DNA of 64,000 nucleotides, from assembly GCA_964464035.1 (NCBI GenBank), contig CAYXEN010000002.1, positions 26,003 to 90,002 on the forward strand. The letters are read 5' to 3'. This stretch comes from an uncultured bacterium. GTDB lineage: Bacteria; Krumholzibacteriota; Krumholzibacteriia; WVZY01. How positions within the stretch are numbered: the stretch's first letter is position 1; every line of letters begins with the position of its first letter. This document shows, piece after piece, positions 30,071 through 56,599 of this stretch. The notes below the pieces were generated by a model. It was not told the DNA's origin. It did not search any database and was given only the letters and a program-made list of their open reading frames with translations. The position numbers were made by a program, and so were the translations under genes.

Positions 30071-30086
30071 TGGCATAGGTTTTGCA
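30071..30086 (+). promoter_or_regulatory. Sigma-54 (-24/-12) promoter candidate upstream of the GAF-GGDEF gene
   Basis: TGGCAT-aggtt-TTGCA. GG and GC are separated by exactly 10 nt. About 78 nt upstream of ATG 30164. Confidence 0.45.
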
Positions 30087-30163
30087 CAAAAGCGGGGGAG
30101 CATAGGTCCGGCCTCCATGCGGATTTAATTCATTTTATCAAGTGAACGTCGCAAGCGATTGCA

Positions 30164-31222
30164 ATGAAAAAACTTGAAAAACACAAGGATCTTCTTTTCT
30201 CGACCATCTCCGAGATCACGAGCCTCATAATTGCCGGCAACGACAAGAAAATAATTATCCAGAAGCTCCTTGATTGTTCCCTGAGGATCTTGGAAGCGGA
30301 GAAGGTGTATCTGCTGGAGCTGAGCGGCGAAAGGATAATCAAGTATTCCAAGTCCGAGGACGGTATGGAAGACGGGGAGATGAGCATCGAGATCGTGCCG
30401 GGAAAGACGGGAGTCATGGAGTGGATGATAAAAGAGGGAAAGGACAGCGAGCTGATGCACAAGGGCGAGGAGCTGGCTTTCGACGTCCCGGTGCTGGCGG
30501 ACCATTTCCTCAGCGACGGGGACAAGGCGCGAATAATAATCTCCGCGCCCCTAGTGGCGAAGAAATCGATGTTCGGGTTGCTGGTGGCGTTGCACAAGAG
30601 CGACGGCGGGCTGTACTCCAAGGAGGACATCAAGCTAATAACCGTGTTGGCGAACCAGGCTGCGATCGCGGTTGAAAACACGATCCTCTACCAGAAGCTC
30701 GAAAAGGAGGCGGTCACCGACGGACTCACGGGAGTATTCAACTACCGTTTCCTGATGACTTCGCTGGAGCGGGAGATCAAGCGAGCCGCGAGATTCAACC
30801 AGGTTTTTTCCTTCGTGATGCTCGATGTGGACAATCTGAAGAAATACAACGACACCCTCGGCCACCTCTACGGGAGCCAGGCCCTGAAAGAAATTGCGAT
30901 CATCATCAAGAACAACTGCCGTGAGATCGACTTCGTCAGCAAGTACGGCGGAGACGAGTTCGGGATCATTCTCCCCCAGACCGATCTCGAGGGGGCGGAG
31001 AATGTCACGAAGCGCATAGTCAGCGCGGTGAGCAGCCACAGGTTCGACGGAACCTCCGCGGGGCTTCTCACCTGCAGTGCGGGCATCTCGCTCTTTCCCA
31101 AGGACGGCAAGACGGCTAAAGAGCTGATCGCAAGCGCCGATAAGGCATTGTATCAGGCCAAGCGCTCCGGAAAGAACAAGCTGTCGACGACGATGGATTT
31201 GATCGTCGATGTCAGCGACTGA
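30164..31222 (+). CDS. GAF domain-containing diguanylate cyclase (GGDEF)
   Basis: N-terminal GAF-like region. GGDEF domain with intact site (GLTGVFNYRF...KYGGDEFGIIL). Confidence 0.85.
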   Translation: MKKLEKHKDLLFSTISEITSLIIAGNDKKIIIQKLLDCSLRILEAEKVYLLELSGERIIKYSKSEDGMEDGEMSIEIVPGKTGVMEWMIKEGKDSELMHKGEELAFDVPVLADHFLSDGDKARIIISAPLVAKKSMFGLLVALHKSDGGLYSKEDIKLITVLANQAAIAVENTILYQKLEKEAVTDGLTGVFNYRFLMTSLEREIKRAARFNQVFSFVMLDVDNLKKYNDTLGHLYGSQALKEIAIIIKNNCREIDFVSKYGGDEFGIILPQTDLEGAENVTKRIVSAVSSHRFDGTSAGLLTCSAGISLFPKDGKTAKELIASADKALYQAKRSGKNKLSTTMDLIVDVSD

Positions 31223-31299
31223 TTTCTGGTTTCCACTTCCGGAATATCTCGTGTATGATGGAGCGGAGCCGTAGTCGATTCAAAAAGAAGAGGTATCAT

Positions 31300-32595
31300 A
31301 TGGAGTTATTGGAAAGAATCAGGAACAAGGACGCAAGATTGTGCGTCATAGGGCTCGGGTACGTCGGGCTGCCTCTCCTCGTCGAGTATGCCAAGGCGGG
31401 GTTCAATACGATCGGTATCGACATCCAGGCGGACAAAGTGGAGAGAGTCAACAAGGGTGAGAGTTACATCGCCGACGTTCCGTCTTCGATCCTCAAAGAA
31501 GTCGTGAGCGAGGAGAGGCTGAAAGCAACAACCGATTTCAGCGTGTTGAACTCGGTCGATACCATCAACATATGTGTTCCCACGCCTCTGAGGAAGACCC
31601 GCGATCCGGACATATCTTTCATCGTAAACGTGGTGAAGGAGATCAAGAAATATCTTCACGAGGGACAGCTCGTCATCCTGGAGAGCACGACCTATCCGGG
31701 CACGACCGAGGAAGTGATTCTTCCAATGCTGGAAGAAAGCGGTCTCGAGGTGGGAGAGGATTTCTTCCTGGCCTTTTCTCCGGAAAGGGTGGATCCAGGC
31801 AACAAGAAATACAACACGAAGAACATTCCCAAAGTGGTGGGAGGAATAACCCCCCGCTGCACGGAAGCCGCTTCCGAGCTCTATCGGGCCGCGTTGACGA
31901 GGACGGTTCCGGTCAGTTCGGCGCGAGTAGCGGAGACCGTAAAGCTGCTGGAGAATACTTTCCGGAGCGTCAACATAGGCCTTGTGAACGAGATAGCTCT
32001 GATGTGCAACAAAATGGATATCGACGTATGGGAAGTCATAGAGGCGGCCGCGACCAAGCCTTTCGGCTTCATGGCATTCTATCCCGGGCCGGGTCTGGGC
32101 GGCCATTGCATTCCGATCGACCCGTTCTACTTGTCTTGGAAGGCCAGGCTCAGCGGGTTCGAGGCGCGGTTCATAGAGCTGGCGGGCCAGATAAACGGCT
32201 CCATGCCCGAATACGTGGTCCAGAAGATCACGGACGCGCTCAACAGGCTCCGCAAGAGCGTCAATGGATCGCGCGTGCTCATCCTCGGCGTCTCCTACAA
32301 GGAAGACATAGACGATACGCGGGAATCGCCCGCTCTCGACGTGATAAGGCTCCTCCAGCAGAAAGGAGCGGAGGTGGTCTATCACGATCCCTTCGTTTCG
32401 CCCGGCGCCAAGGACCTCGAGGACATCGTCGGCATAGAGCTCACGCCCGATAGAGTCAAGAGCTGCGACTGCGCGGCCATCATCACGGGGCACTCCGGCG
32501 TCGATTATGGAATGGTGTTGGAGCATATTCCCGTGCTTGTGGATACACGGAATGTCCTCAAGGATTTTTCATCGGACAAGATCGTGAAGTTGTAG
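31300..32595 (+). CDS. Nucleotide-sugar (UDP-N-acetyl-hexosamine) dehydrogenase, TviB/WbpA/WecC family
   Basis: Start MELLERIRN with AAGAGG RBS. Rossmann VIGLGYVGLP, catalytic region ...GGHCIPIDP..., C-terminal UDP-binding domain. Confidence 0.85.
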   Translation: MELLERIRNKDARLCVIGLGYVGLPLLVEYAKAGFNTIGIDIQADKVERVNKGESYIADVPSSILKEVVSEERLKATTDFSVLNSVDTINICVPTPLRKTRDPDISFIVNVVKEIKKYLHEGQLVILESTTYPGTTEEVILPMLEESGLEVGEDFFLAFSPERVDPGNKKYNTKNIPKVVGGITPRCTEAASELYRAALTRTVPVSSARVAETVKLLENTFRSVNIGLVNEIALMCNKMDIDVWEVIEAAATKPFGFMAFYPGPGLGGHCIPIDPFYLSWKARLSGFEARFIELAGQINGSMPEYVVQKITDALNRLRKSVNGSRVLILGVSYKEDIDDTRESPALDVIRLLQQKGAEVVYHDPFVSPGAKDLEDIVGIELTPDRVKSCDCAAIITGHSGVDYGMVLEHIPVLVDTRNVLKDFSSDKIVKL

Positions 32596-32630
32596 ACAAG
32601 CATGGCCTGTGGAAACAGGAAGGAGTCCAG

Positions 32631-33578
32631 ATGTCCAGATATCTCGTGACCGGTGGAGCGGGGTTCATAGGCTCCAATATAGTGGCGGAACTCTTGCGCA
32701 GGGGCGAGCAAGTCAGAGTGATAGACGATTTCTCGACCGGCCGGCGGGAAAATATCGAGGAGTTCGCCGGCAAGATAGAGCTCATAGAAGGCGACATCCG
32801 CGACATGAAACTGGTCCGCGAAGTGATGAAAGGAGTGGATTTCGTCCTCCATCAAGCAGCGCTGGCCTCGGTTCAGAGAAGCATAGACGATCCCACGAGC
32901 TCGAACGAAGTCAACATCCAGGGCACTCTCAATCTGTTGGAGGCGGCCAGGCATGCGAAAGTGAAGAAGTTCGTTTACGCCTCTTCCTCCTCGGTGTACG
33001 GCGACAGCGAGGAGTTGCCCAAACACGAAGGTATGCCTACGAATCCGAAGTCGCCGTACGCGCTGACCAAGCTCACCGGCGAGTGGTACGCCCGCATCTA
33101 TGGGAACATCTTCGATGTGGCGACCGTGGGCTTGAGATACTTCAACGTTTTCGGACCCAAGCAGGACCCCAATTCGCAGTACAGTGCGGTCATCCCCATT
33201 TTCGTCAAGGCTCTCATGGAAGGCCGGCGAGCCACCATCTTCGGTGACGGGGAGCAATCACGCGATTTCACGTACGTCGAGAACGTCGTCAGCGCCAACC
33301 TCCTGGCCTGCTCCGCCGTTGCTCCCTCGGGGCGGGTGTACAACGTGGCCTGCGGAAAAAGATTTACATTGAATTTCCTGTATGAGAGACTTAGAGAAAT
33401 AATAGGCTCCGATATCGATCCCGAGTACGGACCGGAACGAATCGGAGACGTCAGACACTCGATGGCGTCGATCGATGCCGTGAAACGTGATCTCGGCTTC
33501 GAAGTGCTGGTTGATTTCGAAACCGGTCTCGAAAAGACGGTCGAGTGGTACAGGAAAGTCGAGTTCGCAGGCAGTTGA
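32631..33578 (+). CDS. NAD-dependent epimerase/dehydratase (UDP-sugar 4-epimerase, TviC/WbpP-like)
   Basis: VTGGAGFIGSN, YASSSSVYG...YALTK (SYK triad), about 315 aa. Confidence 0.85.
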   Translation: MSRYLVTGGAGFIGSNIVAELLRRGEQVRVIDDFSTGRRENIEEFAGKIELIEGDIRDMKLVREVMKGVDFVLHQAALASVQRSIDDPTSSNEVNIQGTLNLLEAARHAKVKKFVYASSSSVYGDSEELPKHEGMPTNPKSPYALTKLTGEWYARIYGNIFDVATVGLRYFNVFGPKQDPNSQYSAVIPIFVKALMEGRRATIFGDGEQSRDFTYVENVVSANLLACSAVAPSGRVYNVACGKRFTLNFLYERLREIIGSDIDPEYGPERIGDVRHSMASIDAVKRDLGFEVLVDFETGLEKTVEWYRKVEFAGS

Positions 33579-33614
33579 ACTCGACCGGATCCCGTTCCGG
33601 ATCGAGAGGAAGCA

Positions 33615-34589
33615 ATGAACAAAGCAGGTCTTCTGGGTTTTTCCCTTTTCGTTGCGGCGCTGAGCATGTCCGCCCCGTCCCGCCTCGGGGCGCAACAAGT
33701 CAATCTGCCGGATGATTACAGAGTGGGGACCGGGGACGTGATCTACATCCTGGTCCCGCAGCGTCCCGACCTGAGCCGCGAAGCGAAGATCGACAAGAAC
33801 GGGGATATCACCCTGCCGCTCGTGGGCAACGTCCGTGTCTCCGGGTTGACCGCGCGCGAGATGGAAGCCAGGCTCCTGCAGGCGATGCGCGAGTACTACC
33901 CGAGTCTGAGCGGTCTATCGGTGAGAATCCAGGAGGCGGTGAGCCAGATAATTTACGTGCTCGGCCAGGTGGGGAAACCCGGAAAGTACGCATTTCCCGC
34001 ATCTCCCAACCTGTGGGAAGCGATCCGGGAAGCGGGTGGCCCTACGGCCAACGCCTCTCTCGACAACGTGCGGATCGTGAAGGACAAGAGCAAGGGAGGA
34101 ACCAGCGAGGTGGTCAACGTCATGGAAGCCCTCGAGATGGCGTCGATAGACGATCTGCCCGAACTGGAGGGCGGCGATACGGTCGTCATTCCGGAAAGGG
34201 AGACGACTTATGCCGGGAGCTTCGGCGTGAACGTGTTCGGCTCCGTTCAACATCCCGGCATATACAGGCTGCAGGGGAGGCACGATCTCTTGAGCGCGGT
34301 TCTCCTGGCCGGCGGGCCGGCGGGCGGAGCCGCCCTGAATCACATAAAGATAATAAGGCCCGGGAGTGATGGGAACGTCGAGACGATCGAAGTGGATCTG
34401 GAAAAGTATCTCAAGGAAGGTGACCCGCTGTCCAATCCCAAGCTTCAGCCGGGGGATACGGTGCATATCCCGGCGCAAAACCGCATAGCGTTCCTGTTCA
34501 AGAACGACCTCGGATTCATCATGAACATCGTCACGACTGGTGTCACGGTCGCCGCTTTGATTGTAAGCGTAAAGTATTACCAGAGGTGA
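33615..34589 (+). CDS. Polysaccharide export protein (Wza-like periplasmic/OM component with SLBB domains)
   Basis: Signal peptide. YRVGTGDVIYI..P (Poly_export motif). Repeated soluble-ligand-binding beta-grasp-like segments. C-terminal hydrophobic helix. Confidence 0.8.
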   Translation: MNKAGLLGFSLFVAALSMSAPSRLGAQQVNLPDDYRVGTGDVIYILVPQRPDLSREAKIDKNGDITLPLVGNVRVSGLTAREMEARLLQAMREYYPSLSGLSVRIQEAVSQIIYVLGQVGKPGKYAFPASPNLWEAIREAGGPTANASLDNVRIVKDKSKGGTSEVVNVMEALEMASIDDLPELEGGDTVVIPERETTYAGSFGVNVFGSVQHPGIYRLQGRHDLLSAVLLAGGPAGGAALNHIKIIRPGSDGNVETIEVDLEKYLKEGDPLSNPKLQPGDTVHIPAQNRIAFLFKNDLGFIMNIVTTGVTVAALIVSVKYYQR

Positions 34590-34602
34590 TCACAGCACCG
34601 GC

Positions 34603-36282
34603 ATGAGAAAACTCACCGATGATACACAAGATAACTCCTCCAAGCTGAACCTCACCGAGATCTGGAGGGTCGCTTGGCGCAAGAAATACCTCCTCCTCGT
34701 TCCGCTCCTCATCCCTCTCGTGGTTACGCTGATCGGGGTTCGTTTCCTCGTACCCGTGTTCGAAGCGTCGAGCATCATCAGAATGGAGGACAAGAATCTC
34801 CTTACGCGGGAGATGGAAAGGTACATCCAGTTCCAGGACAGGCGCAGGATGCACGACAGGGAAGCGGAAGCCAGGATAAAGTCGGAGCTTGCCACGAGCA
34901 AGTTCCTCGACGAGCTCATCGACAGGTTGGGCATGGACAAGGATCCCAAGATTCTCAAGTGGGCGGAGAGGCAGAGAGCGAACCGCTTCCCGGATCTGTC
35001 GGTCAGGGAACTGGTTCACAGGAAGTTGCGCGGCAGGGTGAAGAAGACCATCAGCGTCGAAAGGGTCGGCCCCGGGATGTTCAAGATTTCGGCGTTCCAC
35101 TTCGATCCCGAAATCTGCTACGTAATCGCGAACGCCGTGACGGAGCTTTTCATACAGAACCAGAAGAAGAAGCAAATAGAGGGCCTTCAAGAGGCGAGCG
35201 ATTTCAGCGACGAACACCTCGTGCTATACAAGGAGAGGCTGGAGAAATCCGAGCAGGAACTCGACCGCTTCAAGAAGAAGATGAATCGTTTGAAGATGAA
35301 GGTGATCCCGGTCGGCGAGAGAAACCTTGGCTACGCCGAGACCCTGCTCAAGCAGATCGAGATCAAGATAAACGACGGCAGGGGGATCCTCGGCAAGATC
35401 GAATCCAATCTCGTCGCCCTCTTCGGTTCGGTGCCCAAGAGTTCAGTGCTCGACGGCGACGGGGAGCTTCGGAAAATACGCACCCAGTTGCTGGCCCAGT
35501 TCGAAACCCAGCTGCTCCTGGAGCTGGGAGCGAGAGGCGAGAAAACCGACGAACTTCGCGAGAGCGTAAGCGACATAACTTCGACCGGCGAAGCTCTTCA
35601 GAAGCGCCTGGCCGAGGTCGTTCCCCGTGCTTTTCCCGACATCTACAAGGATTACTATCCTCTGATCGTCGAGTTCTACTACCAGAAAACGATGGTTGAA
35701 GGCTACGAGAAGAAGAAGACGTCGCTCAAAGGCTACATAAACGATTACAAGCAGAAACTCGAATTGGAACCGCAGTGGGAAAGGCAACTCGCCAAGCTCA
35801 GGGAAGAAGTTCAGCTCAACAAGGACCTGTACAATTCTTTCCTGAAGGCCAAGACGTCAACGCAGATATCGGAATCGGCGCAGAACACGAATCTCGGGCT
35901 GACCATCGAAGTGGTTGAAAAGGCCCGCAAACCGATGTCTCCGGTTCGACCCAACAAACCCAAGATCATCATAATCGCCATCCTCTTCGGCGGTTTTCTC
36001 GGTGTAGGCAGTCTCATCGTTTCCGAGTTCGTCGATACTTCATTCCGGTCCGTCGAAGAAATCCAAAGAGAACTGGGGTTGAAGGTTCTGGGCACGGTTC
36101 CAAGGTTCGAGTTGAACGCCGAATGGGGGGAAAGAGGAGGTTTCCGGCGAGTGCTGGTATGGGTGGCGGCTTCATTGATCATAGGCGGCATAGCGATTCT
36201 GGGGTTCTACTATTACGGAAAATCTTCCACCGGGAATCGCATAGAGATCTACGCATCACAAAGGGTGGAGGATGTGAAATGA
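34603..36282 (+). CDS. Polysaccharide chain-length determinant protein (PCP, Wzz/EpsF-like; no kinase domain)
   Basis: N-terminal TM (KKYLLLVPLLIPLVVTLIGV), long periplasmic coiled-coil, second TM near the C-terminus (IIIIAILFGGFLGVGSLIV). Confidence 0.8.
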   Translation: MRKLTDDTQDNSSKLNLTEIWRVAWRKKYLLLVPLLIPLVVTLIGVRFLVPVFEASSIIRMEDKNLLTREMERYIQFQDRRRMHDREAEARIKSELATSKFLDELIDRLGMDKDPKILKWAERQRANRFPDLSVRELVHRKLRGRVKKTISVERVGPGMFKISAFHFDPEICYVIANAVTELFIQNQKKKQIEGLQEASDFSDEHLVLYKERLEKSEQELDRFKKKMNRLKMKVIPVGERNLGYAETLLKQIEIKINDGRGILGKIESNLVALFGSVPKSSVLDGDGELRKIRTQLLAQFETQLLLELGARGEKTDELRESVSDITSTGEALQKRLAEVVPRAFPDIYKDYYPLIVEFYYQKTMVEGYEKKKTSLKGYINDYKQKLELEPQWERQLAKLREEVQLNKDLYNSFLKAKTSTQISESAQNTNLGLTIEVVEKARKPMSPVRPNKPKIIIIAILFGGFLGVGSLIVSEFVDTSFRSVEEIQRELGLKVLGTVPRFELNAEWGERGGFRRVLVWVAASLIIGGIAILGFYYYGKSSTGNRIEIYASQRVEDVK

Positions 36283-36968
36283 AAGCTTCGGATATATTCG
36301 AATACTACGAGAGCGAATCTCCCATCGCCACGGAATTGCGAAGGCTGTATCACAATCTCACTACGCTCGACGGGGACAAGAAGAACAAGTCCTTTCTCGT
36401 TACGAGTTCCGAGAGAGGAGAGGGAAAGAGTACGATAACGTCCCATTTGGCGCTGACCGTGGCGCAGTTTCCAAGGAAGAAAGTCGTCGTGGTGGATGCC
36501 GATTTCAGGCGTCCGAGAATACACCAACTGTTCGGGTTGACCAATGCGGTGGGTCTCATAAGTTGCTTGCGTGACCTGAAGGACCCGATGAGCGTCGTGC
36601 AGGATACGAGGCTGGACAACTTGAAGGTCGTGACTTCAGGGGGATACAGCGAAACGCCGGCCCAGCTTTTCGAAACGGACGCCTTGACCGAATTCATGGA
36701 AAAGATGAAATTCTACTTCGACGTGGTGATCGTGGACGGCGCTCCCATACTTGCGGTCAGCGATACCTTGTTCTTGTGCAACCGGATCGATGCGGTCCTT
36801 TTCGTGGTCCTCGTGGGCCGCACGCCGAAACAAGTGGTCAAGCGCGCCAAGGAAATCTTGGTCGACTCCAAGGCAAACATCGCCGGCGTCGTCGTCAACA
36901 ACGCTTCGGAGGTTCTGCCGTATTACTACGACTACAAGTATTACGGTTACGGGCCCGACAGGGGTTGA
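36279..36968 (+). CDS. BY-kinase (CpsD/EpsG-like tyrosine autokinase ATPase), separate polypeptide
   Basis: Walker A SSERGEGKST, Walker B VVIVDGAP, C-terminal Tyr cluster YYYDYKYYGYG. Start ATG overlaps the PCP stop (ATGA). Confidence 0.8.
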   Translation: MKASDIFEYYESESPIATELRRLYHNLTTLDGDKKNKSFLVTSSERGEGKSTITSHLALTVAQFPRKKVVVVDADFRRPRIHQLFGLTNAVGLISCLRDLKDPMSVVQDTRLDNLKVVTSGGYSETPAQLFETDALTEFMEKMKFYFDVVIVDGAPILAVSDTLFLCNRIDAVLFVVLVGRTPKQVVKRAKEILVDSKANIAGVVVNNASEVLPYYYDYKYYGYGPDRG

Positions 36969-36995
36969 TTGCAAACGGACAGGTTTGATGATCAA

Positions 36996-38042
36996 ATGCG
37001 TGTTGCGGCCTTTCCTTCCCATCTAGAATCCAATCCCTATTGTGACCTCCTCTACGACAACCTGCGGGATCTCGGTGTGGAGCTCGCCGAAGAAATGGAG
37101 CCTTCTTTCCGCGATTTCTGGAAGCATCGTCGCGAAGTCGACGTTCTGCATTTCCACTGGATCGAAAGATACTACCGGCACTGGAGGGGAGGCTGGTTTT
37201 CACGGATGACGCTGATCAGATTCAAGCTGCTCATACTTTTCGCCCGCTTGCTGGGTTACCGGATAGTCTGGACGATGCACAACCTGAAGCCCCATGAACC
37301 GGCCGCCGGGCGTTTGGACGACGACGCAATAGCGTTCATGGCCGCGCACGCATCCACCGCGGTGCATTGCGAGAGGGCCAGGGAGCTTCTCGAGGAAAAG
37401 GCGGGGCTCGTTCGTACGGCGGTGATACCCCACGGCAACTACATCGGCTATTACCCGGTGCGTCATTCGCGGGAATCGGCGCGCAAGGAGCTCGGCATCG
37501 ACGGGGATAAAACGGTCTTTCTGTTCTTCGGAATGATCAGGATGTACAAGGGAATCGGTGAGCTCTGCGAATCTTTTCGCGCGGTCGGTGCCGGCGACGC
37601 CATGCTCCTGATAGCGGGCAAGCCGTACGAAGAGAGGGAAGAGGATTTCATAGACGCGGTGAGGGAGGAATTCACCGAAAGCGGCATCCGCTTCGTCTGC
37701 GATTTCATCCCGGACGATGAAGTGGCCAAGTATTTCCTCGCATGTGACTTCGCGGTTTTTCCCTATCGCAACGTGTTGACGTCCGGCTCGGTGATACTGG
37801 CCCTGGGATTCGGCAGGTCGATCATAGCTCCTCGTATAGGATGCATAGCCGAGCTCGAGGATGAGGGGGTCGGAATATTCTACGACCCCGAAGAGGAGGG
37901 AGGGCTCGAGCGGGCCATTCGGGCCGCCTTGCGGGTAGAAAGCACCGAAGAGATGGCGAGGAGAGCCCGCGATCTCGCGCGAGGGCTGAGCTGGCGAACG
38001 ATCGCGGAGGAGTATCTCTCACTCTACGGGCAGGGAGGTTGA
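36996..38042 (+). CDS. Glycosyltransferase, group 1 (GT4-like)
   Basis: C-terminal GT-B nucleotide-binding half (FPYRNVLTSGSVILALGFGRSIIAPRIGCIAE). Start uncertain: ATG 36996 vs TTG 36969. Confidence 0.7.
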   Translation: MRVAAFPSHLESNPYCDLLYDNLRDLGVELAEEMEPSFRDFWKHRREVDVLHFHWIERYYRHWRGGWFSRMTLIRFKLLILFARLLGYRIVWTMHNLKPHEPAAGRLDDDAIAFMAAHASTAVHCERARELLEEKAGLVRTAVIPHGNYIGYYPVRHSRESARKELGIDGDKTVFLFFGMIRMYKGIGELCESFRAVGAGDAMLLIAGKPYEEREEDFIDAVREEFTESGIRFVCDFIPDDEVAKYFLACDFAVFPYRNVLTSGSVILALGFGRSIIAPRIGCIAELEDEGVGIFYDPEEEGGLERAIRAALRVESTEEMARRARDLARGLSWRTIAEEYLSLYGQGG

Positions 38043-38084
38043 ACCATTCCCGGCGTTGCGGAACAAGCAAGCAGCAGTGTCGAT

Positions 38085-40774: not shown

Positions 40775-40778
40775 AGAC

Positions 40779-42015: not shown

Positions 42016-42064
42016 ATTTCTTGCTCTGCATCTGGGAACCCTTCAGAGAGAGGCATTGACTTCA

Positions 42065-45361: not shown

Positions 45362-46194
45362 CCCTCAAGAGGATCATAAGTAAGTACTTCAGGTGCTGGG
45401 AAGAAACGATCTTGCTCACCAAGCGCCCCGTGCTGCTGCTCCCTTTCATCGTTCTCGCCCTGGTCGAGGTTTCGGTCCTCGTAAGCATAGTATGGTTCAT
45501 CCATCCTCCATTCTCGTTTTTCATGCCGGGCCTGGTGAAGATGATAGCGGGCGAACAGGTTTTGCACTATCCCTCTCACCTCGTCCTGCTTCCCGGCTTG
45601 TATCAACTGATTCTGGCACCCATCATGGTAGTCTTCGGTTTCGCCCTCCTGGGTTGGGGCGTCTTCATGATCATGGATCATTACCGGGGATCGTTGCATG
45701 GAGCGCGGTTCTATCTGGAGACAGTGGCCTGGAACATGCCCGGATTCTCCCTCATAGGGTTGCTGTTCATGGGTTTGGTCGTGGGAGCGCCGCTGGGCCT
45801 GTCCCATGCGGCAGGCTCGCTCGACCCCGGGATTCTGCGAAGCATCGTGGGCGAGTTGAGCGGCGTCTGGGGGTTCGTTTGGGAAGTGTTCTTGATCTAT
45901 GCTCTCGTCTTCATGCGGCTGTATCCTGAGAGCGCGGGAAAGGCGATTGCGAAGGGGTTCGGCTTCGCCAAGAGAAGGTTCATCGTAACGGCTCTCGTCG
46001 TTGCCACCGTCGCTCTGATTCACAAGCCCTTCGAGTACTTGATCTCGAGCGCGACGGCCGTCGCAATAAAATTCAAACCGGAACTGCTCGTGAGCGTGAT
46101 CGTTTTCGACATAATAGCTGAAGTGATCACCAATTATTTCTTGTTCGTGTCCATCTCCTATCTGGCTGCGACCTCGTTATGGAAGCGAAGATGA
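45358..46194 (+). CDS. Hypothetical polytopic membrane protein
   Basis: 278 aa, about 7 hydrophobic segments. Coupled to epsI. Confidence 0.5.
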   Translation: MTLKRIISKYFRCWEETILLTKRPVLLLPFIVLALVEVSVLVSIVWFIHPPFSFFMPGLVKMIAGEQVLHYPSHLVLLPGLYQLILAPIMVVFGFALLGWGVFMIMDHYRGSLHGARFYLETVAWNMPGFSLIGLLFMGLVVGAPLGLSHAAGSLDPGILRSIVGELSGVWGFVWEVFLIYALVFMRLYPESAGKAIAKGFGFAKRRFIVTALVVATVALIHKPFEYLISSATAVAIKFKPELLVSVIVFDIIAEVITNYFLFVSISYLAATSLWKRR

Positions 46195-47741: not shown

Positions 47742-47743
47742 AT

Positions 47744-48856: not shown

Positions 48857-48872
48857 AGACCGGAGGTTGGAA

Positions 48873-50423
48873 ATGAGAATCAGATTGTCACTCTATGCCG
48901 CGGCGCTGACACTGTTGGCCTTCGGGGCCGCGGGATGTCTCGAGAAACTGCCCGAGGAGCTGAACGAACCGGTCCCTTCGATACCGACCCCCACCGATCT
49001 TTCCGCGGTCTCCAGGGACGGGGGCGCGACGATTTCATGGAGCTTCGATCAAAGTTTCCAATTCGAGAGCTTCAAGATATATAGGAGCGATGACGATCGC
49101 GCGACGTGGCAGAAAGTGGGAACGACGGCGGCCCCACCCTATGACGATTCCAATCTTAGAAACGGCATAATCTATTGGTACCGCGTCAGCGGCGTGAGTG
49201 TCGACGGCTTGGAGGGGCGTCCTTCCGGTGAGCTGCCCGTCATGGCCAATGCATTCGGCGTCGTCATAAACGACGGCGCGGAATTCACGAGCAGCAGGAT
49301 GGTGACCCTTCGATTCGCGGCGCCGACTCAGACGCAATCTGTGGTTTTCTCGGAGGATTCTCTTTTCCAGGGGGCTCTTCGCGAGGCGTACAATCCAACT
49401 TACCCTTTCGAACTGAGCGGCACGGACGGCGTGAAGCGAGTATACGCGGAGTTCAAGGATGCGTTGGGCAACGTGAGCGGAAAAGTATCCGATTCGATCG
49501 TGCTCGACACGCACGCGGCCATAGACAGCCTCTCGTTCAGTCCCGCCGGCCCGTTCGCGCCCGGGGCCTCGATTCACTTCCGGGTGGTGAGCAAGGGGAG
49601 GGAGGCCGACGGATATGCCTTGATTACGATAGGAGGCGTCGCCGGGCCGATCTACGCGATGGACGACGGCGGTAACGGCGATTCGCAGGCGGGCGACGGC
49701 GTCTGCGAGAGGGATTACGTGTTCATGCAGTCTTTCCGTGGCACCGGCATCAGGGCCAGCGCGGTGTTCATCGACGCCGCCGGCAACGAGAGCGATGCCA
49801 TGGAGTTCCCGGGAGAAATCGATTTCACGGACCCGCCGCAGGCGGTATATCTGTTCCCGGCGGTGGACTCCACGACTTCCAGCATCACTCTGAGGTGGTC
49901 ACAGTCCCAGGATCAACATTTCTCCGATTACGCGGTCTATCGAAGCGAATCCGCCCAGGTGTCGGAGGATTCCTCCCTCAGGGTGGGGCTCGTCTACGAC
50001 AAGGCCACTCAGGAATGGACGGACACCGGTCTCGACGAAGCCAAGACTTACTACTACCGCGTGTACGTGGAAAACGACCTGGGAGAGACGCAGGGGAGCA
50101 ATGTACGTGCGGCTCGAACGCTTGATCTTCCACCCGAACCGGTCGTATGCGATCCTCTCAGTTCCGTGGGCAATGGAAGGGCGACCGTCACATGGAGCGT
50201 CAACAACGATTCGGATTTCCTTGCATACTACGTTTACCGGGATACTATTCCCGGCGTCACCGAAACGACGGGGACCATGGTGTCGCCCGTGATAACGGAC
50301 AGGTACACGACCTTTTTCGACGACAGCGGGCTGGATCTCTTGAACCACACGTATTACTACCGGGTCTACGTGTACGACAAGGGTGGAAACAAGGCGCGAA
50401 GCAACGAGGTGGCTACTCAGTAG
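48873..50423 (+). CDS. FN3-like repeat lipoprotein
   Basis: Start MRIRLSLYAAALTLLAFGAAGC (lipobox) with GGAGG RBS. Several FN3-like modules (FKIYRSDDDRATWQKVGTT...YWYRVSGV; YAVYRSES...YYYRVYVEN; YYVYRDT...YYYRVYVYD). Confidence 0.65.
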   Translation: MRIRLSLYAAALTLLAFGAAGCLEKLPEELNEPVPSIPTPTDLSAVSRDGGATISWSFDQSFQFESFKIYRSDDDRATWQKVGTTAAPPYDDSNLRNGIIYWYRVSGVSVDGLEGRPSGELPVMANAFGVVINDGAEFTSSRMVTLRFAAPTQTQSVVFSEDSLFQGALREAYNPTYPFELSGTDGVKRVYAEFKDALGNVSGKVSDSIVLDTHAAIDSLSFSPAGPFAPGASIHFRVVSKGREADGYALITIGGVAGPIYAMDDGGNGDSQAGDGVCERDYVFMQSFRGTGIRASAVFIDAAGNESDAMEFPGEIDFTDPPQAVYLFPAVDSTTSSITLRWSQSQDQHFSDYAVYRSESAQVSEDSSLRVGLVYDKATQEWTDTGLDEAKTYYYRVYVENDLGETQGSNVRAARTLDLPPEPVVCDPLSSVGNGRATVTWSVNNDSDFLAYYVYRDTIPGVTETTGTMVSPVITDRYTTFFDDSGLDLLNHTYYYRVYVYDKGGNKARSNEVATQ

Positions 50424-50541: not shown

Positions 50542-50557
50542 TGGCCTTATAATTGCA
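50542..50557 (+). promoter_or_regulatory. Sigma-54 (-24/-12) promoter candidate upstream of the PorV-like gene
   Basis: TGGCCT-tataa-TTGCA. GG-N10-GC spacing exact. About 60 nt upstream of ATG 50618. Confidence 0.5.
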
Positions 50558-50617: not shown

Positions 50618-51943
50618 ATGTTGCTCGAGAGGAAAACCATCAAGGGACTCTTTCTCATAGTCCTCGTCCTCTACCTCTCTCTTCGATCCGGCCCACTGTC
50701 GGCTTCATCTTCTGAAGACGGAACCAGAGCGGCGTCTTTCCTTTTCATTCCCGTGGGAGCCCGGTTGTTGAGCGGGCCGTCCATCCTGGCTCAGATGGGG
50801 CCCGACGCCTCATTGGTGTTCTCCAACCCGTCGGCACTGGCCAAGGTGGAAGGGGGGAACATGTTCCTGACGGGTTCGAACTGGCTGGACGACGTGTCCT
50901 TCAGCGCTTTCGGCATGGTCGTTCCCGGGATTCCGTACGGGTTCAAAGTGGGCATCGGAGCGCGTTTCCTATATTCCGGCGACCTCCAAGGCTACGACGA
51001 TGCTCTATCGGTGGTGAAGAGGAGCAGCTACTACGATCTGGCATTGAATCTGGCCGTAGGGCGCAGCATACCCTGGGCTAACGTAGATCTGGGGCTGGGG
51101 ACGACGCTTCTTCGTGAAAACCTCGCAGGATGGAAGGGCGACGGGTATGCACTCACATTCGGCGCCACGTACCGGCTTCGGGGCAACATAGTGGATCTAT
51201 GGCTGGAAAACATCGGCGGCAAGCTGAATTACAGGGACGTCGGATTCAAGCTCGACCGCAGGCTGAGGCTTGGATACGGCAGACTGCTGACAGTGAAGGG
51301 CGGAAACGTCAGAGTGGGCGGGGAGATGAGCGTATTTTCGTCCGGCACGAAGGAACTCGCTGTCGGCGTGGATTATCTTCTGAGCAGGCATTTCTCCCTT
51401 CGAGCGGGAATGGATCATTCGTTGACTGGATCCGAATCCAGCGGTTTTCCGCTCAAGGCCGGCTTCGGATTCCACACCAGCGGAGTTTCGGTCGACTACG
51501 CCTTCATCTCCCGAAAGTATTTCGCAGGCACGCATACCTTCTCGCTTTCCTTTCCACTCCAGCGCTTCGATGCTTCGGGCGAAAAGCGGGGCGGAGCCGT
51601 CCCGGCCGGTGTTTCGAAGAGTGCCCGTTCGGGCCCCGAAAGGGTCATGCCGGCGGGTCCGGAAAGAACAGCCCTCGAGGATCGACCGCCGCTCTCGCGT
51701 CGGGGCGAGACATCACAGGGGAGCTATTTGATCATCGGCGGCATGCACTCCCGTAAGGAGAGCGCCCAAGCCGAGGTGCAAGCGTTGCGCCGTGAAAACC
51801 TAGCTGCCGTTATAAGGGAAGTCGATGGAAGCTACCTCGTCTCTCTCGGCGAGTATACGGACAAACGCGATGCCAAGAAGGCGCTCGAGCGATTGCGGAG
51901 CGCCGGCTACGACTTCACTCTCTTCGAATTGCCCAGGCACTGA
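50618..51943 (+). CDS. PorV/PorQ-like (UPF0164/FadL-like) outer-membrane beta-barrel with C-terminal SPOR domain
   Basis: Signal peptide. N-terminal motif AASFLFIPVGARLLSGPSILAQMGPDASLVFSNPSAL, characteristic of PorV/LptO-family barrels. Alternating beta-strand pattern. C-terminal SYLIIGGMHSRKESAQAEVQALRREN...VSLGEYTDKRDAKKALERLRSAGY matches the SPOR fold. Confidence 0.55.
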   Translation: MLLERKTIKGLFLIVLVLYLSLRSGPLSASSSEDGTRAASFLFIPVGARLLSGPSILAQMGPDASLVFSNPSALAKVEGGNMFLTGSNWLDDVSFSAFGMVVPGIPYGFKVGIGARFLYSGDLQGYDDALSVVKRSSYYDLALNLAVGRSIPWANVDLGLGTTLLRENLAGWKGDGYALTFGATYRLRGNIVDLWLENIGGKLNYRDVGFKLDRRLRLGYGRLLTVKGGNVRVGGEMSVFSSGTKELAVGVDYLLSRHFSLRAGMDHSLTGSESSGFPLKAGFGFHTSGVSVDYAFISRKYFAGTHTFSLSFPLQRFDASGEKRGGAVPAGVSKSARSGPERVMPAGPERTALEDRPPLSRRGETSQGSYLIIGGMHSRKESAQAEVQALRRENLAAVIREVDGSYLVSLGEYTDKRDAKKALERLRSAGYDFTLFELPRH

Positions 51944-52279
51944 TCCTGGTGAAATCCGCACAACGCTTCCGATTCTTGACCCACTCATAAGTGCTTGATG
52001 AACAAGGCTATGCCTGCTGTCACGTTGCCGGGGCGCGGGTATTTTACCAGGCTTGAGATTACGCAAGTAGGGGATTGCCGCAAGTCAAACTTCCATGCCT
52101 GGATGGATGGGAGTAACGCACCTAGCCATAACGTGTTATGTTATTGCCGCTCAAAGTTGCGGTTTCTCGACGCGGCGGTTCCGGTGGAATCATAATTGCG
52201 TAATGCAAAATGAACAGGCTCTATCCATTAATCACATTAATTCAGTCATCGGCAACACCCAGCAAGTATCGGGGATAAT

Positions 52280-53068
52280 ATGACATATCAAACAATCAGA
52301 AAATCTCTGGGTTCCCTGCAGGTCAGATGGATCGGTCCCGGGGTCCTGGAGAGGAACAGATTCGTCGTTACGAAACGCGAATTCGACAGGACGTATTTCG
52401 CCCTGTGGAAGAGGTTCATAGATATTGCTTTTAGCCTGGCTGCAATCATCCTTCTATCTCCCTTGATGGTTATCACCGGGGCGTTGATCCGGTTGACGTC
52501 CCCCGGACCGGTCATATACAAGCAAGAGCGGATAGGGATCAATCGCAGGGTCGGTGAACGCCGCAGACGGTACGGGGGAAAGACGATCGGAGAGCGGAGA
52601 AGAAGGAAGGACAGGAGAGTACTGGCTAACTACGGGAAGCCGTTCTTCATCTACAAGTTCAGAACCATGTACGAGTCGTCGGAGGGCGGCAAGCCCCAAT
52701 GGGCCATAAAGGACGATCCCAGGATCACTCCTCTGGGGAAGATTCTCAGAAAGACCAGGATCGACGAATTGCCGCAGTTTTTCAACGTTCTCAAGGGTGA
52801 CATGAGTCTGGTCGGTCCCCGACCGGAGAGGGCGTTCTTCATCGGAAAAGTCGAACATGAAATCCCCGAGTTCCAGCTCCGCCTGCGGGCGAAGCCTGGC
52901 ATAACCGGGCTGGCGCAAGTCCGTCTGGGATACACCAACAACACCGAGGGGCTAAAGAAGAAACTCCGCTTCGATCTCGAGTACATAAGCAGGCTCAGTT
53001 TCTGGTCCGATTTCAAGATCATGCTCAAGACGATCGGTGTGGTCTTGACCGGCAAAGGCGCATGTTGA
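52280..53068 (+). CDS. Polyprenyl-phosphate sugar phosphotransferase (bacterial sugar transferase, WbaP/EpsB C-terminal domain type) with Arg-rich insertion
   Basis: TM anchor, KQERIG...GKPFFIYKFRTM...DELPQFFNVLKGDMSLVGPRP signature. A roughly 28-aa insertion NRRVGERRRRYGGKTIGERRRRKDRRVLANY splits RIG and GKPF. Confidence 0.85.
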   Translation: MTYQTIRKSLGSLQVRWIGPGVLERNRFVVTKREFDRTYFALWKRFIDIAFSLAAIILLSPLMVITGALIRLTSPGPVIYKQERIGINRRVGERRRRYGGKTIGERRRRKDRRVLANYGKPFFIYKFRTMYESSEGGKPQWAIKDDPRITPLGKILRKTRIDELPQFFNVLKGDMSLVGPRPERAFFIGKVEHEIPEFQLRLRAKPGITGLAQVRLGYTNNTEGLKKKLRFDLEYISRLSFWSDFKIMLKTIGVVLTGKGAC

Positions 53069-53104: not shown

Positions 53105-53133
53105 TTGACAGCACCAAGGGCGGTTGCTAGTTT
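53105..53133 (+). promoter_or_regulatory. Sigma-70 promoter candidate for the HK-RR operon
   Basis: TTGACA-17 nt-TAGTTT, about 30 nt upstream of ATG 53161. Confidence 0.35.
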
Positions 53134-53160
53134 CCTTACGAGCTAGCCGGACCATTGGAC

Positions 53161-55218
53161 ATGCCTAGATTCTACACTATCATCCATTATGCCGCCTATG
53201 GCGCGTTCCTGGCGATCATCGCCGCCCTCGTTCCATGGTACGCTTTTCTCGTCATCGCCGTGGCTTTTTCCGTTCTCCATGCGGTCTTCGTGTACAGAGG
53301 GAAGAAAAAGCGTTTCGATGAGCTTTTGCAGCACTTGAAAAACCTTCCGGGTGAAGCCGCACCGCCTCTCGATCTAAGCACGAAATCCAAGGACATCGAT
53401 CAGCAGATTTTCCACCACTTCAGGGAAGTGGCGTCCGAGCTCGAGAAAAAATGCTATCAGCTCGTTGAAAAGAACATTCAACTCTTGAGCATGAAGGAGT
53501 TGGGGTTGACCATCATATCCTCGGTGAATGAGGAGAAAGTGGTGGAGTCGGTCGAGAATTTTCTGTCGAAGGGCCTGGGGTTCAAAGAGCTGATCATTGC
53601 CATCTTCGACAACAACGAGAAGGCGTTCAACATGCATTTCTACAGGGACGCCCTGGGCAGGATAGATCAAAGGAGCGAGCTTGTAAGGCTTGGATCCCTG
53701 GAGTACATGCTTGCCAGGGCGATCATTTCCAGAAGGGCCCTTCTCATAAGGGATCCGGAGACGCATCCTCTCGGATCGATCGACGGCAGGATGATATTCG
53801 GTGACAGCACCATGAGTTCGTTCGTGCTGGTTCCTATGGTGAGGAGCACTATCGCCCTCGATTGTTGGAAAGACGAGAAATGCCTTCGCTCCGGAGAAGA
53901 AGTGGGGTTCGACACCGAGCTGGATCCCGAGATTTGTCCGGAGTGCATCAACTTCCCGATACTGGGAGTCATCGGTGTGACCGACGGGTTCAGGGCCGAG
54001 GGTTTGAGTAACGTCGATCTCGTGTCGGTGGAGACTCTCGCCCTGCAGGTCAGCACGATCCTCGAGAACACGCACCTCTACAACGATCTCAAGAAGGAAG
54101 AAACGTTTCGTGACGACGTCATCAACGGCATGACGAACGGACTCATAAGCGCCGACGTGGACGGAGAGATCGTGCTCGTGAACCAGGCGGCGGAGAACCT
54201 GTCCGGATTCACGGCCGACGAGTTGAGGGGCAGATCCTTGGACGAGATCATCATAAACGGGGGAAGGGAGAACGGAAAGGGGCCCATAGAACGCAACTTG
54301 AAAAGCGGAAGACGAAGTTTCCAGGAAGAAGCATGGCTGGTTAGAAAAGACGGGGACAGGATACCCATCATATTGAATACTTCTTTTCTGCTCGATAGTG
54401 ACGGCAATATCAACGGGATATTGGCATTGTTCTACGATCTGACCCAGATCAAGTTGATGGAGAAGAAGATTGCGCACCTCGACAAGTTGGCTGCGCTGGG
54501 GCGCTTCTCTTCGAGCATCGCGCACGAGATACGCAACCCGCTGGCGGGAATAGCGGCGGGGATACAATACATAAAACGAACGAGCGAATTGAGCGATGAA
54601 CAGAATGAGAACATATCATTCATCCTGAAGGAAGTCAGCAGGATAGATAGATTGATCGGCGATCTCATGAACGTGGTCAAAGAGGGCGATCTGATTTATC
54701 AGAAATCAAGCATTGAAAAGATCGTAGAAGATTGCATAAAGAGCCTCGATGAGCTCATAAGATGCAAGAGGGTCCGTATCAACCGGGCGTTCCCCGAGAA
54801 GAGCATGGAGGTGGACATCGACCGGGACCGGATCACACAGGTGTTCATGAACCTCATCAAGAACGCCGTAGAGGCCAGCGCAGACGGCGGGGAAGTGGAC
54901 ATCGAGGTTTCTTTCCCCAAGTTCGGCGGGGAGGTTTTGTTTGACCGCATAGGGGATTATGTTATGATAAAAATCAGGGATAGAGGGGTGGGGTTGTCGC
55001 GCGAGGAAAAGGAAAGACTATTCGAGCCCTTCTTCTCAACCAAACAAAACGGCGTCGGATTGGGTCTCTATGTCACCCACAGCTTCGTGGAGCGGCATGG
55101 AGGCTCGATCTTCGTGGAGAGTGAAAAAGGGAAGGGAACCACGTTTTCCGTCTATATACCCACAGAGAGGGCCGAGCATGGAACAGCAGGTAAAATCCGT
55201 CATCCTCTTGGTGGATGA
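53161..55218 (+). CDS. Sensor histidine kinase (2 TM, GAF, PAS, HisKA, HATPase_c); PrsK-like
   Basis: HisKA H-box RFSSSIAHEIRNPLAGI. N, G1 and G2 boxes (NLIKNAVEAS, DRGVGL, GVGLGLYV). PAS (NGMTNGLISADVDGEIVLVNQAA). GAF with Cys-rich insert. ORF is open from TTG 53155. Confidence 0.85.
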   Translation: MPRFYTIIHYAAYGAFLAIIAALVPWYAFLVIAVAFSVLHAVFVYRGKKKRFDELLQHLKNLPGEAAPPLDLSTKSKDIDQQIFHHFREVASELEKKCYQLVEKNIQLLSMKELGLTIISSVNEEKVVESVENFLSKGLGFKELIIAIFDNNEKAFNMHFYRDALGRIDQRSELVRLGSLEYMLARAIISRRALLIRDPETHPLGSIDGRMIFGDSTMSSFVLVPMVRSTIALDCWKDEKCLRSGEEVGFDTELDPEICPECINFPILGVIGVTDGFRAEGLSNVDLVSVETLALQVSTILENTHLYNDLKKEETFRDDVINGMTNGLISADVDGEIVLVNQAAENLSGFTADELRGRSLDEIIINGGRENGKGPIERNLKSGRRSFQEEAWLVRKDGDRIPIILNTSFLLDSDGNINGILALFYDLTQIKLMEKKIAHLDKLAALGRFSSSIAHEIRNPLAGIAAGIQYIKRTSELSDEQNENISFILKEVSRIDRLIGDLMNVVKEGDLIYQKSSIEKIVEDCIKSLDELIRCKRVRINRAFPEKSMEVDIDRDRITQVFMNLIKNAVEASADGGEVDIEVSFPKFGGEVLFDRIGDYVMIKIRDRGVGLSREEKERLFEPFFSTKQNGVGLGLYVTHSFVERHGGSIFVESEKGKGTTFSVYIPTERAEHGTAGKIRHPLGG

Positions 55219-56599
55219 TCAGGATACGATCAGATTCTTTCTGGAGAAGACCCTGAACCAGGAGAATTACGAGGCGATCTCGGCAAAGACGGGCGCAGAG
55301 GCCCTCGAAATGGTCCAGAAACATCTGCCTGATCTGGTATTACTCGACCTCAAGCTCCCCGACATAGACGGAATCGAGGTATTGAAACGCGTCAAGGAAC
55401 AATTCCCTGAGATATGCGTGGTGATGATCACCGCCTTCGGAGATATCGAAACGGCGGTGGATGCGATGCGCAACGGCGCGTACGATTTCGTAACCAAGCC
55501 GATCAACCTGGAACAGCTGCTCATTGTCATAAAGAAAGGCCTGGAGAGCAAGCGGCTCAGCCGCGAGATCCTGCAGCTGAAACGCTGGATGGATCTCGAG
55601 ACGGGCTTCGAATACATCATGGGGGAGAGTCCGGCGATGAAGAAGGTCTACGACGTGGTCAAGCAGGTCGCGAAGAGCGACACGACCACCGTGCTCATCG
55701 AGGGCGAGAGCGGCGTGGGCAAGGAAATGATCGCCAGGCTCATCCACCGTTACAGCAAGAGGGCGGAAAAGGCGTTTCTCGATATCAATTGCGCTTCCTT
55801 GCCGGAGCAGCTTCTGGAGAGCGAGCTCTTCGGGCATGAGAGGGGAGCGTTCACGGATGCAAAGACCCAAAAGCAAGGCCTGCTCGAACTTGCCAATCGA
55901 GGGACTCTCTTCCTGGACGAAATAGGCGAAATGAGCATGAAGATGCAGGTGAAACTGCTTCGCGTCCTGGAGAGGATGGTATTCAGGAGGGTGGGAGGCA
56001 CGACCGACATCCACGTGAGTGTGCGGATCATAAGCGCCACCAACAGGGACCTCAAGCAGGAGGTGGACGAGGGCAGATTCAGGACGGATCTCTACTACCG
56101 GCTCAAGGTCGTTCCCGTGCGGATCCCTCCCTTGCGGGAACGCAAGGAAGATCTCATGTTGTTTGCAAAGTATTTCCTCAATCATTTCAGCAAGAAATTC
56201 AACAAGCACTTCGAGGAGATAAGCAGCGAAGCCGAGGCGATTATGCTCGGCTACGATTGGCCTGGGAACATCAGAGAACTAAAGAATACCCTGGAGAGAA
56301 TCGTCCTGCTCGAGGACGATTCCGTGTTGAGGGCCGAGCACCTTCCCTTCGCCGAGCACAGGGCGGAAGATCACAGCCTCGGCAGGAAGATCGACAGGAT
56401 TCTCTCGCAACCGTTCGGGGAAGGCGGCATCGATTTCGACGGCATAGTATCCGAGCTGGAGAAGGCTCTCATCCTGAAGGCATCGGAGGAGAGCAAATGG
56501 GTGCAGAGCAGAACGGCGAGATTGCTCAACATGAAACGAGACAAGCTTCGCTACCGCCTCAAGAATCTCAAGCTGGACGATGAAAGGGAAGTGAATTAG
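55178..56599 (+). CDS. Sigma-54-dependent response regulator (REC, AAA+ sigma-54 activator, Fis HTH); PrsR-like
   Basis: REC domain (DD...DLKLPD). Walker A GESGVGKE, GAFTDA motif, ESELFGHE, C-terminal HTH. Overlaps the HK 3-prime end by 41 nt. Confidence 0.9.
   Translation: MEQQVKSVILLVDDQDTIRFFLEKTLNQENYEAISAKTGAEALEMVQKHLPDLVLLDLKLPDIDGIEVLKRVKEQFPEICVVMITAFGDIETAVDAMRNGAYDFVTKPINLEQLLIVIKKGLESKRLSREILQLKRWMDLETGFEYIMGESPAMKKVYDVVKQVAKSDTTTVLIEGESGVGKEMIARLIHRYSKRAEKAFLDINCASLPEQLLESELFGHERGAFTDAKTQKQGLLELANRGTLFLDEIGEMSMKMQVKLLRVLERMVFRRVGGTTDIHVSVRIISATNRDLKQEVDEGRFRTDLYYRLKVVPVRIPPLRERKEDLMLFAKYFLNHFSKKFNKHFEEISSEAEAIMLGYDWPGNIRELKNTLERIVLLEDDSVLRAEHLPFAEHRAEDHSLGRKIDRILSQPFGEGGIDFDGIVSELEKALILKASEESKWVQSRTARLLNMKRDKLRYRLKNLKLDDEREVN

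Follow-up and report, generated by a model that had tools for sequence, protein, structure and literature searches.

Sigma-54 control of the cell exterior, polysaccharides included, is an established theme (Francke et al. 2011, PMC3162934). In 2006, PEP-CTERM/exosortase loci were predicted to include a sigma-54 activator (Haft 2006, PMC1569441), and experiments connected with floc formation in Aquincola and Zoogloea demonstrated that a PEP-CTERM gene depends on RpoN (PMC9850573). Circuits of RpoN, cyclic di-GMP (c-di-GMP) and polysaccharides are represented by BerA/BerB and the bep cluster of Burkholderia (PMC9684580), and RpoN of Vibrio alginolyticus has been linked to vps and c-di-GMP genes (PMC11722192). 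The literature searched contained no report of sigma-54 or polysaccharide regulation for members of Krumholzibacteriota. Another circuit that unites a sigma-54-type regulator, c-di-GMP and polysaccharides is that of Pseudomonas FleQ. The present study concerns a stretch of 64,000 nucleotides (nt) from an uncultured Krumholzibacteriota bacterium (hereafter, the window) and, within it, a locus of polysaccharide and surface-protein genes at positions 30071–56599, identified by family and Pfam profile scans, which begins with the gene of a GAF-GGDEF diguanylate cyclase and ends with those of a histidine kinase and a sigma-54 activator. We propose, with a probability of about 0.75, that the locus would be transcribed mainly from three sigma-54 promoters, P1, P2 and P3, through the mechanism outlined below.

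Judged by sequence comparison, the sigma-54 signature is real and marks a predicted phylum-wide regulon, but one of an already known style of regulation. As in the theme described by Francke et al., promoters and activators go together with genes for polysaccharide biosynthesis and export; here, in contrast, the association is fixed phylum-wide at a single syntenic site (recN ... lptE-holA), with the cyclase gene in the lead. With PrsK/PrsR systems the locus shares the combination of exosortase and EpsI in a polysaccharide locus, a two-component sigma-54 activator, -24/-12 promoters and an upstream enhancer-type site. It differs from them in its kinase (PAS/AtoS type) and its regulator (NtrC1/AtoC type), which score below the PrsK/PrsR cut-offs, and in that no PEP-CTERM genes were seen in the window. 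Moreover, the predicted targets are the cyclase operon, a PorV/SPOR gene and a priming transferase gene rather than PEP-CTERM genes, the surface proteins bear C-terminal domains of the type IX secretion system (T9SS) type, and the host belongs to Krumholzibacteriota and not to Proteobacteria. The Burkholderia, Vibrio and Pseudomonas circuits likewise join c-di-GMP metabolism and polysaccharide clusters to sigma-54 or its activators. In those organisms, however, c-di-GMP acts upstream, on the regulator, whereas here the cyclase would be the first product of a sigma-54 promoter.

Predicted sigma-54 promoters and their conservation

The initial annotation had placed strong -24/-12 elements upstream of the GAF-GGDEF gene and of a PorV-like gene, and both were recovered exactly as described. 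P1 (TGGCATAGGTTTTGCA; 30071–30086, plus strand) carries its GG doublet at 30072–73 and its GC doublet at 30084–85, 78 nt before the ATG of the cyclase gene at 30164, and its predicted transcription start falls at about 30096–30098. P2 (TGGCCTTATAATTGCA; 50542–50557, plus strand) lies 61 nt before the ATG at 50618 of the gene for an outer-membrane protein with a SPOR domain. When scored with an approximate sigma-54 weight matrix, P1 (17.8 bits) and P2 (13.9 bits) rank first and third among about 128,000 window positions. P3, which the initial annotation had overlooked, lies at 52185–52200 on the plus strand (TGGAATCATAATTGCG; with one more 5' base, 52184–52200, GTGGAATCATAATTGCG), 80 nt before the gene of a polyprenyl-phosphate sugar transferase. 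Its score of 8.5 bits in the window rises to 11.7 bits in JGI contig Ga0434945_000032 (L001), which is near-identical to the window and has A instead of G as the last base of the element. In all three promoters the GG and GC doublets are 10 nt apart, and all are intergenic and on the same strand as the genes, with the C of the -12 box 79, 62 and 81 nt from the ATG at P1, P2 and P3, respectively. The one-base difference between window position 52200 and L001 position 11583 (TTGCG versus TTGCA, at position -11 of P3) is, from the comparison of these two contigs, a strain-level polymorphism within the promoter.

Several statistics set these sites apart from the surrounding DNA. The strict pattern TGGC-N7-TTGCW occurs four times in the window against 0.6 expected, a number reached in none of 100 shuffles, and two intergenic matches score at least 13.9 bits where 0.10 would be expected (P ~0.003, Markov-1 simulation over 6.8 kb of non-coding DNA). 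In a matrix scan of the window, the strong sites outscore the simulated background, and the comparative data agree. Across 1.17 Mb of related loci, matches of at least 12 bits number 114 on the gene strand and seven on the opposite strand; 74 are upstream of GGDEF genes. Two other window matches were set aside as probable chance occurrences: one upstream of dnaK (TGGCACGTGCATTGAT; 8638–8653, plus strand), which has no GC doublet, and one of 14.3 bits that lies antisense inside pheT (CTGGCATAGGTGGTGCA; 16782–16798, minus strand).

The comparison with relatives draws on a scan of representative genomes that yielded 79 loci; besides Krumholzibacteriota, these come from genomes carrying the label 'Latescibacteria' and from a small number of genomes further away. 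Orthologs of the GAF-GGDEF protein number more than 100, at 59–81% identity, and the set used for P1 comprises 76 loci, with protein identity down to 39%. In 74 of these 76 loci the top-scoring match in the 330 nt that precede the GGDEF gene reaches 12 bits or more, and this -24/-12 element lies 29–86 nt before the start codon. In one of the remaining two loci the match is truncated, and the other encodes a Bacillota protein that is 34% identical and does not count as an ortholog. Among the 74 distinct sequences, positions T-26, G-25, G-24, A-22, T-14, G-13 and C-12 are invariant, and the information in the N5 spacer and on either flank amounts to about 0–0.7 bits. The family consensus is [AG]TGGCAT-N5-TTGC[ATG].

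P2 and P3 are conserved over narrower sets of relatives. TTGG[CT]C[CT]-N5-TTGC[AT] is found upstream of the PorV/SPOR ortholog in all ten loci that have one (L003–L007, L087–L090 and the window), mostly 57–110 nt before the start. It is kept although the PorV/SPOR proteins, whose only homologs are distant ones from Candidatus Krumholzibacteria metagenome-assembled genomes, share just 31–37% identity. At P3, GG-N10-GC precedes the transferase ortholog in about 24 of 29 loci, mostly at 70–115 nt, with a maximum of about 190 nt in L003. Best scores have a median of 9.5 bits, compared with 2.8–4.8 bits in the 400-nt upstream windows of operon-internal control genes (PEGA/DUF5683 2.8, dehydrogenase 3.5, Wza and epimerase 4.3–4.8). 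Relatives carry extra sigma-54 elements before other glycosyltransferase and polysaccharide genes. The central idea of the initial annotation, a polysaccharide/surface locus that shares sigma-54 promoters with a cyclase gene, gains strong support from the comparison with relatives.

The third and weaker site claimed near 42000, upstream of a gene for an FN3/Big_5 protein, fared differently. The GG-N10-GC at 42000–42013 scores below 2 bits and is unconserved. A conserved sigma-54-like element, Px (TTGCATATTTCTTGCT; 42010–42025, plus strand), does sit nearby, eleven bases downstream of it and 38 nt upstream of the FN3/Big_5 ATG at 42064. At this position G[TC][GT]CAC-N5-TTGCA, mostly as cGTGCACGGTTCTTGCAgcccc, is present in 15 of 19 orthologous loci and canonical TGGCAC in none of the 19; the family consensus is cGTGCAC-N5-TTGCA. 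The spacing of Px fits sigma-54 and its -12 box is perfect, with TG, CG, CT or TT in place of GG. The GG doublet of sigma-54 promoters is held to be near-invariant. Without it, Px falls outside the definition of such a promoter, and it could be either a degenerate version of one or the site of another factor.

Two short-motif observations concern the DNA around P1. About one locus in three has a TTAAC/GTTAAC-type motif some 8–12 nt ahead of the -24 box (30055–30069 in the window, equivalent positions in L016–L029, L063 and L069), and in some loci it belongs to a TAAC-N17-GTTAA inverted repeat. GTTAA/TTAAC pentamers are 13-fold enriched just upstream of the -24 box, an enrichment that is clade-specific and confounded by stop codons; the motif may be a bending site similar to those of integration host factor (IHF). 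In addition, a distant clade (L070, L071, L077 and L080) has a second sigma-54 element, CTGGAATGTGG-TTGC, between the GGDEF and epimerase genes (11149–11165 in L071), and the cyclase gene may be transcribed alone there.

The kinase/activator pair and its candidate enhancer

That the locus ends with a histidine kinase and a sigma-54 activator of the response-regulator type was borne out: the domains are present, and the position is conserved phylum-wide. The kinase gene (53161–55218, plus strand) encodes PAS, HisKA and HATPase_c domains, and its place before the activator gene and lptE is retained in relatives. The activator gene (55178–56599, plus strand) encodes an NtrC1-type regulator with REC (PF00072, 106 bits), AAA+ (PF00158, 240.8 bits) and HTH_8 (PF02954, 32.6 bits) domains plus an AAA lid. 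Its nearest solved structure is Aquifex NtrC1 (1NY5, E = 1e-110, residues 9–382). The term 'PrsK/PrsR-like' holds for the architecture by analogy and fails for the families, of which neither protein is a member. The kinase reaches 112.3 bits against PrsK (TIGR02916, cut-off 300), over the kinase core only, and the regulator 393.6 bits against PrsR (TIGR02915, cut-off 502.6); the best family matches, AtoS and AtoC, are likewise under their cut-offs. With such scores the genes should not be named PrsK and PrsR.

The sigma-54-contact loop of the activator reads GAFTDA, where the class motif is GAFTGA, in all ten detected copies (nine distinct loci plus L001). The same loop occurs in DVU2106, a functional sigma-54 activator (PMC4641369), and in VfmH, a c-di-GMP-binding protein for which interaction with sigma-54 was not detected (PMC10714721). 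Two separate ideas can be attached to these peculiarities, both speculative and, taken jointly, unlikely. Px may be a working sigma-54 promoter that dispenses with GG, and the GAFTDA activator may sense the c-di-GMP made by the cyclase. If the former were true, Px would represent a natural class of GG-less promoters with unusually strong dependence on an activator; if the latter were true, a feedback loop would be closed, as in FleQ and VfmH.

Candidate binding sites for the activator are found upstream of P3. The window has a weak copy of the palindrome TGGGTAA-N3-TTACCCA at 52034–52050 (CGCGGGTATTTTACCAG), at -150 from P3. The motif is far more regular in a group of 19 loci (clade 2) with GGDEF proteins that share about 50% identity with that of the window. 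Two 17-bp palindromes with the consensus TGGG[TG]AA-N3-TT[AC]CCCA precede P3 in all 19, at -185/-154 or -176/-145, and they are spaced by 30–32 nt in 18 of them and by 41 nt in L046. Within the clade of the window, palindromes lie at -149 to -157 in L005 (13.7 bits), L006 (12.4 bits), L087 (11.5 bits) and L089 (12.8 bits). Tandem arrangement, geometry and distance match those of NtrC-class enhancer sites. The resemblance to Aquifex aeolicus NtrC1 and to NtrC enhancers extends from the REC and AAA+ alignment to tandem 17-bp palindromes three helical turns apart, at about 120–150 nt upstream of a promoter. The differences are the loop, GAFTDA instead of GAFTGA, and the half-site TGGGTAA, which bears no relation to the NtrC half-site. 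For P3, the connection to the local activator has good support.

The search for inverted repeats upstream of the four window promoters gave only two short palindromes. Upstream repeats, which the initial annotation had suggested as a check of its sites, exist as position-conserved palindromes at P3 and not at P1 or P2; a TGGGTAA-N3-TTACCCA-type palindrome was not found as a conserved site upstream of P1, P2 or Px. Two candidates near P1 were rejected. GGGGGAATATTTTCCC (29946–29961), one of the two short palindromes just mentioned, lies about 115 nt upstream of P1, scores 11.1 bits against the P3 palindrome motif and has no counterpart upstream of P1 elsewhere, save in a small sub-clade (L009, L010, L013 and L014) with TGAGGGAATTCTCCCAA at -178. 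An enumeration of perfect inverted repeats of 6-mers in the DNA before P1 gave only TTCACC-N8-GGTGAA at -289 in nine close relatives; this repeat falls within the upstream coding sequence and is inseparable from shared ancestry.

Transcription from P3 probably continues into the kinase and activator genes, since the three genes abut in clade 2 and the 86-nt gap between transferase and kinase genes in the window contains no terminator. Such read-through would probably result in positive autoregulation of the pair. A sigma-54 promoter for the kinase gene itself was rejected as a general feature (median best score 6.5 bits; good sites only in L003 and L088). Before this gene stands a weak sigma-70-like pair, TTGACA-N17-TAGTTT (53105–53133, plus strand), not listed by the consensus scanner, which could give basal expression of kinase and activator.

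Proposed circuit and competing explanations

In the circuit that we favour, a signal at the PAS kinase would lead to phosphorylation of the activator, which would assemble on the TGGGTAA-N3-TTACCCA palindromes about 150 nt upstream of P3 and use ATP to open the complex of the sigma-54 holoenzyme. P1 would drive an operon led by the cyclase gene and followed by UDP-sugar dehydrogenase, epimerase, export, chain-length and glycosyltransferase genes. P2 would drive the PorV/SPOR outer-membrane protein gene, and P3 the priming transferase gene together with the kinase and activator genes, which read-through would reach, in a self-activating loop. The polysaccharide genes and the cyclase gene would therefore be induced together, and c-di-GMP would rise only upon induction of the locus. 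We infer that the local activator would bind the palindromes and act on P1 and P2 as well as P3, and the operon boundaries and the downstream role of c-di-GMP are likewise predicted. The boundaries follow the layout of the genes: those of the putative P1 operon are separated by at most 42 nt, the gaps before the GGDEF, FN3/Big_5, PorV/SPOR and transferase genes measure 131, 137, 194 and 336 nt, respectively, and a terminator search found no convincing terminator inside 30164–41927 or 42064–50423. No gene of the locus was recognised as coding for a c-di-GMP receptor.

A number of points weigh against this proposal. The 17-column matrix is an approximation of the published consensus mrNrYTGGCACGrNNNTTGCWNNw, with approximate frequencies. 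Scans of the window and of the related loci examined did not reveal rpoN, and tblastn with an approximate probe for the RpoN C-terminus gave no match in either; the conserved gene of a sigma-54 activator is an indirect indication that the genome has rpoN. The enhancer copy at P3 in the window scores only 5.3 bits, and motif and inverted-repeat searches yielded no enhancer motif common to P1, P2 and P3. Finally, loci L076 and L085 keep P1 and have no kinase or activator genes between transferase and lptE; P3 is absent from them too.

The last two points bear on the most serious competitor, according to which the sigma-54 promoters are genuine, P1 and P2 are served by one or more activators encoded elsewhere, and the local pair controls only P3 and itself. 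The cyclase and polysaccharide genes would then answer different signals. Given that the palindrome is confined to P3 and that L076 and L085 retain P1 without the local pair, the connection of the activator to P1 and P2 rests on gene neighbourhood. This neighbourhood is nonetheless tight, as the activator genes are linked to the GGDEF operon phylum-wide. The minimal loci L008, L011 and L012 consist of no more than the GGDEF, dehydrogenase and epimerase genes and, immediately behind them, those of kinase and activator. Enhancers may also be degenerate, lie inside upstream coding sequences or act over kilobases, and a second activator gene was seen in none of the loci. On balance, an outside activator is possible and clearly the less probable arrangement.

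Much less plausible is the idea that the TGGCA-N6-TTGC elements only mimic -24/-12 promoters and are operators of a protein other than sigma-54 or signals at the transcript level. The failure to find rpoN in the window or loci would fit, as would Px, at which a related motif is conserved without GG. However, the invariant positions of P1 are exactly those of the sigma-54 consensus, with a variable N5 and fixed spacing in 74 distinct sequences. At least three unrelated promoters of the locus share only the sigma-54 positions, and the locus conserves the gene of a sigma-54-specific activator. As for signals in the transcript, a riboswitch or structured leader was rejected because the Rfam scan of the locus had no riboswitch match and the leaders fold no better than shuffled sequence. 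We consider this explanation very improbable. The notion that the matches arose by chance in intergenic DNA of higher AT content, for which one might cite a two-mismatch consensus search of the window (25 matches versus 17.8 expected, not significant), has a negligible probability, for it runs against the window enrichment of the strict pattern and of high-scoring sites and is already refuted by the conservation of P1, P2 and P3, which is incompatible with chance.

Gene content, neighbourhood and significance

The gene content given in the initial annotation (GAF-GGDEF protein, polysaccharide genes, exosortase and EpsI, PorV-like protein, kinase and a REC/sigma-54-AAA+/HTH regulator) was confirmed in full by the profile scans. 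The cyclase gene (30164–31222, plus strand), first of its putative operon, has GAF and GGDEF Pfam domains and scores 162.9 bits against TIGR00254 (cut-off 37.4). Its YGGDEF motif and, five residues upstream, an RxxD inhibitory site (REID) are invariant in the ortholog alignment. Within 31255–41927, on the plus strand, there follow genes for a TviB-like nucleoside diphosphate (NDP)-sugar dehydrogenase, a TviC-like epimerase, a Wza-like exporter, a chain-length determinant and a tyrosine autokinase. The next two genes code for glycosyltransferases, and the last two for a Wzy_C/O-ligase-like protein and an unknown protein of 382 amino acids (aa). The next block (42064–50423, plus strand) starts at 42064 with the FN3/Big_5 protein, to which family scans and the translation assign a T9SS-type C-terminal domain, and holds genes for the exosortase, EpsI, an unknown 278-aa membrane protein and TPR, PEGA/DUF5683 and FN3 proteins; gene calls on L001 also underlie this block. 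The PorV/PorQ-like outer-membrane protein with its C-terminal SPOR domain (PF05036) is encoded at 50618–51943 (plus strand); it scores 75.9 bits against NF033709, under the cut-off of 90. The transferase (Bac_transf; 52280–53068, plus strand), which primes polysaccharide synthesis, reaches 216.9 bits against PF02397 and 291.8 bits against TIGR03025.

The exosortase and EpsI genes lie 8–9 kb upstream of the kinase and regulator genes. The exosortase scores 170.1 bits against TIGR02602 (cut-off 105.55) and EpsI 96.7 bits against TIGR02914 (cut-off 42.8), and the exosortase falls short of the XrtA subtype (168.3 versus 208). A regular-expression scan found no PEP-CTERM sorting signal in the tail of any window open reading frame (ORF); substrates of this kind may be encoded elsewhere in the genome. 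The two genes adjoin those of T9SS-kind proteins, namely the FN3/Big_5 protein with its T9SS-type C-terminal domain and the PorV/PorQ-like barrel fused to SPOR (window segments 42064–45361 and 50618–51943), and this mixture of two sorting systems is conserved in relatives. For annotation, this means that an exosortase is found here among T9SS-type components and not with PEP-CTERM substrates.

The flanks of the locus are housekeeping genes. Upstream of P1, family scans revealed a tRNA-Arg gene followed by two small membrane-protein ORFs, and 3' of the activator gene lptE, holA, trx and leuS. Mapping with tblastn gave a phylum-wide frame that runs from dxs, nadK and recN through a stretch of tRNA and small ORFs to the GGDEF, dehydrogenase, epimerase, Wza, chain-length determinant and tyrosine kinase genes and then, past a set of variable genes, to Bac_transf, kinase, activator, lptE, holA, trx and leuS. 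The size of the locus between these conserved ends differs greatly among relatives. Directly upstream of P1, a gene for a small two-helix membrane protein is present phylum-wide (29712–30032 in the window, about 9570–9899 in L038). Toward its 3' end the coding sequence is unusually rich in AT, and one clade conserves this part at the level of nucleotides (..TATCATATCTATAAAAATATCAAGGAGATA..); it may double as regulatory DNA. The tRNA-Arg(CCG) gene (29345–29419, plus strand) comes directly after recN and overlaps the start, at 29389, of a 108-aa ORF, which therefore either starts later or is not real. Elsewhere in the window, a tRNA-Val(GAC) gene (10778–10854, plus strand) is situated between dnaK and thrS, and a gene for 6S (SsrS) RNA (18459–18640, plus strand; RF00013, 80.5 bits versus a gathering score of 46.4) occupies a 1-kb gap before rny.

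To our knowledge, Krumholzibacteriota have no cultured, genetically tractable member, and almost nothing is therefore known of their gene regulation. The locus supplies a phylum-wide promoter consensus, a candidate enhancer sequence and a defined kinase/activator pair, which together form a compact circuit that could be rebuilt in a heterologous host. It also points to a wiring that has not been emphasised in model organisms, in which a highly conserved cyclase leads a polysaccharide operon driven by sigma-54. With the cyclase gene first behind the sigma-54 promoter, c-di-GMP would be an output, and not an input, of the two-component signal.

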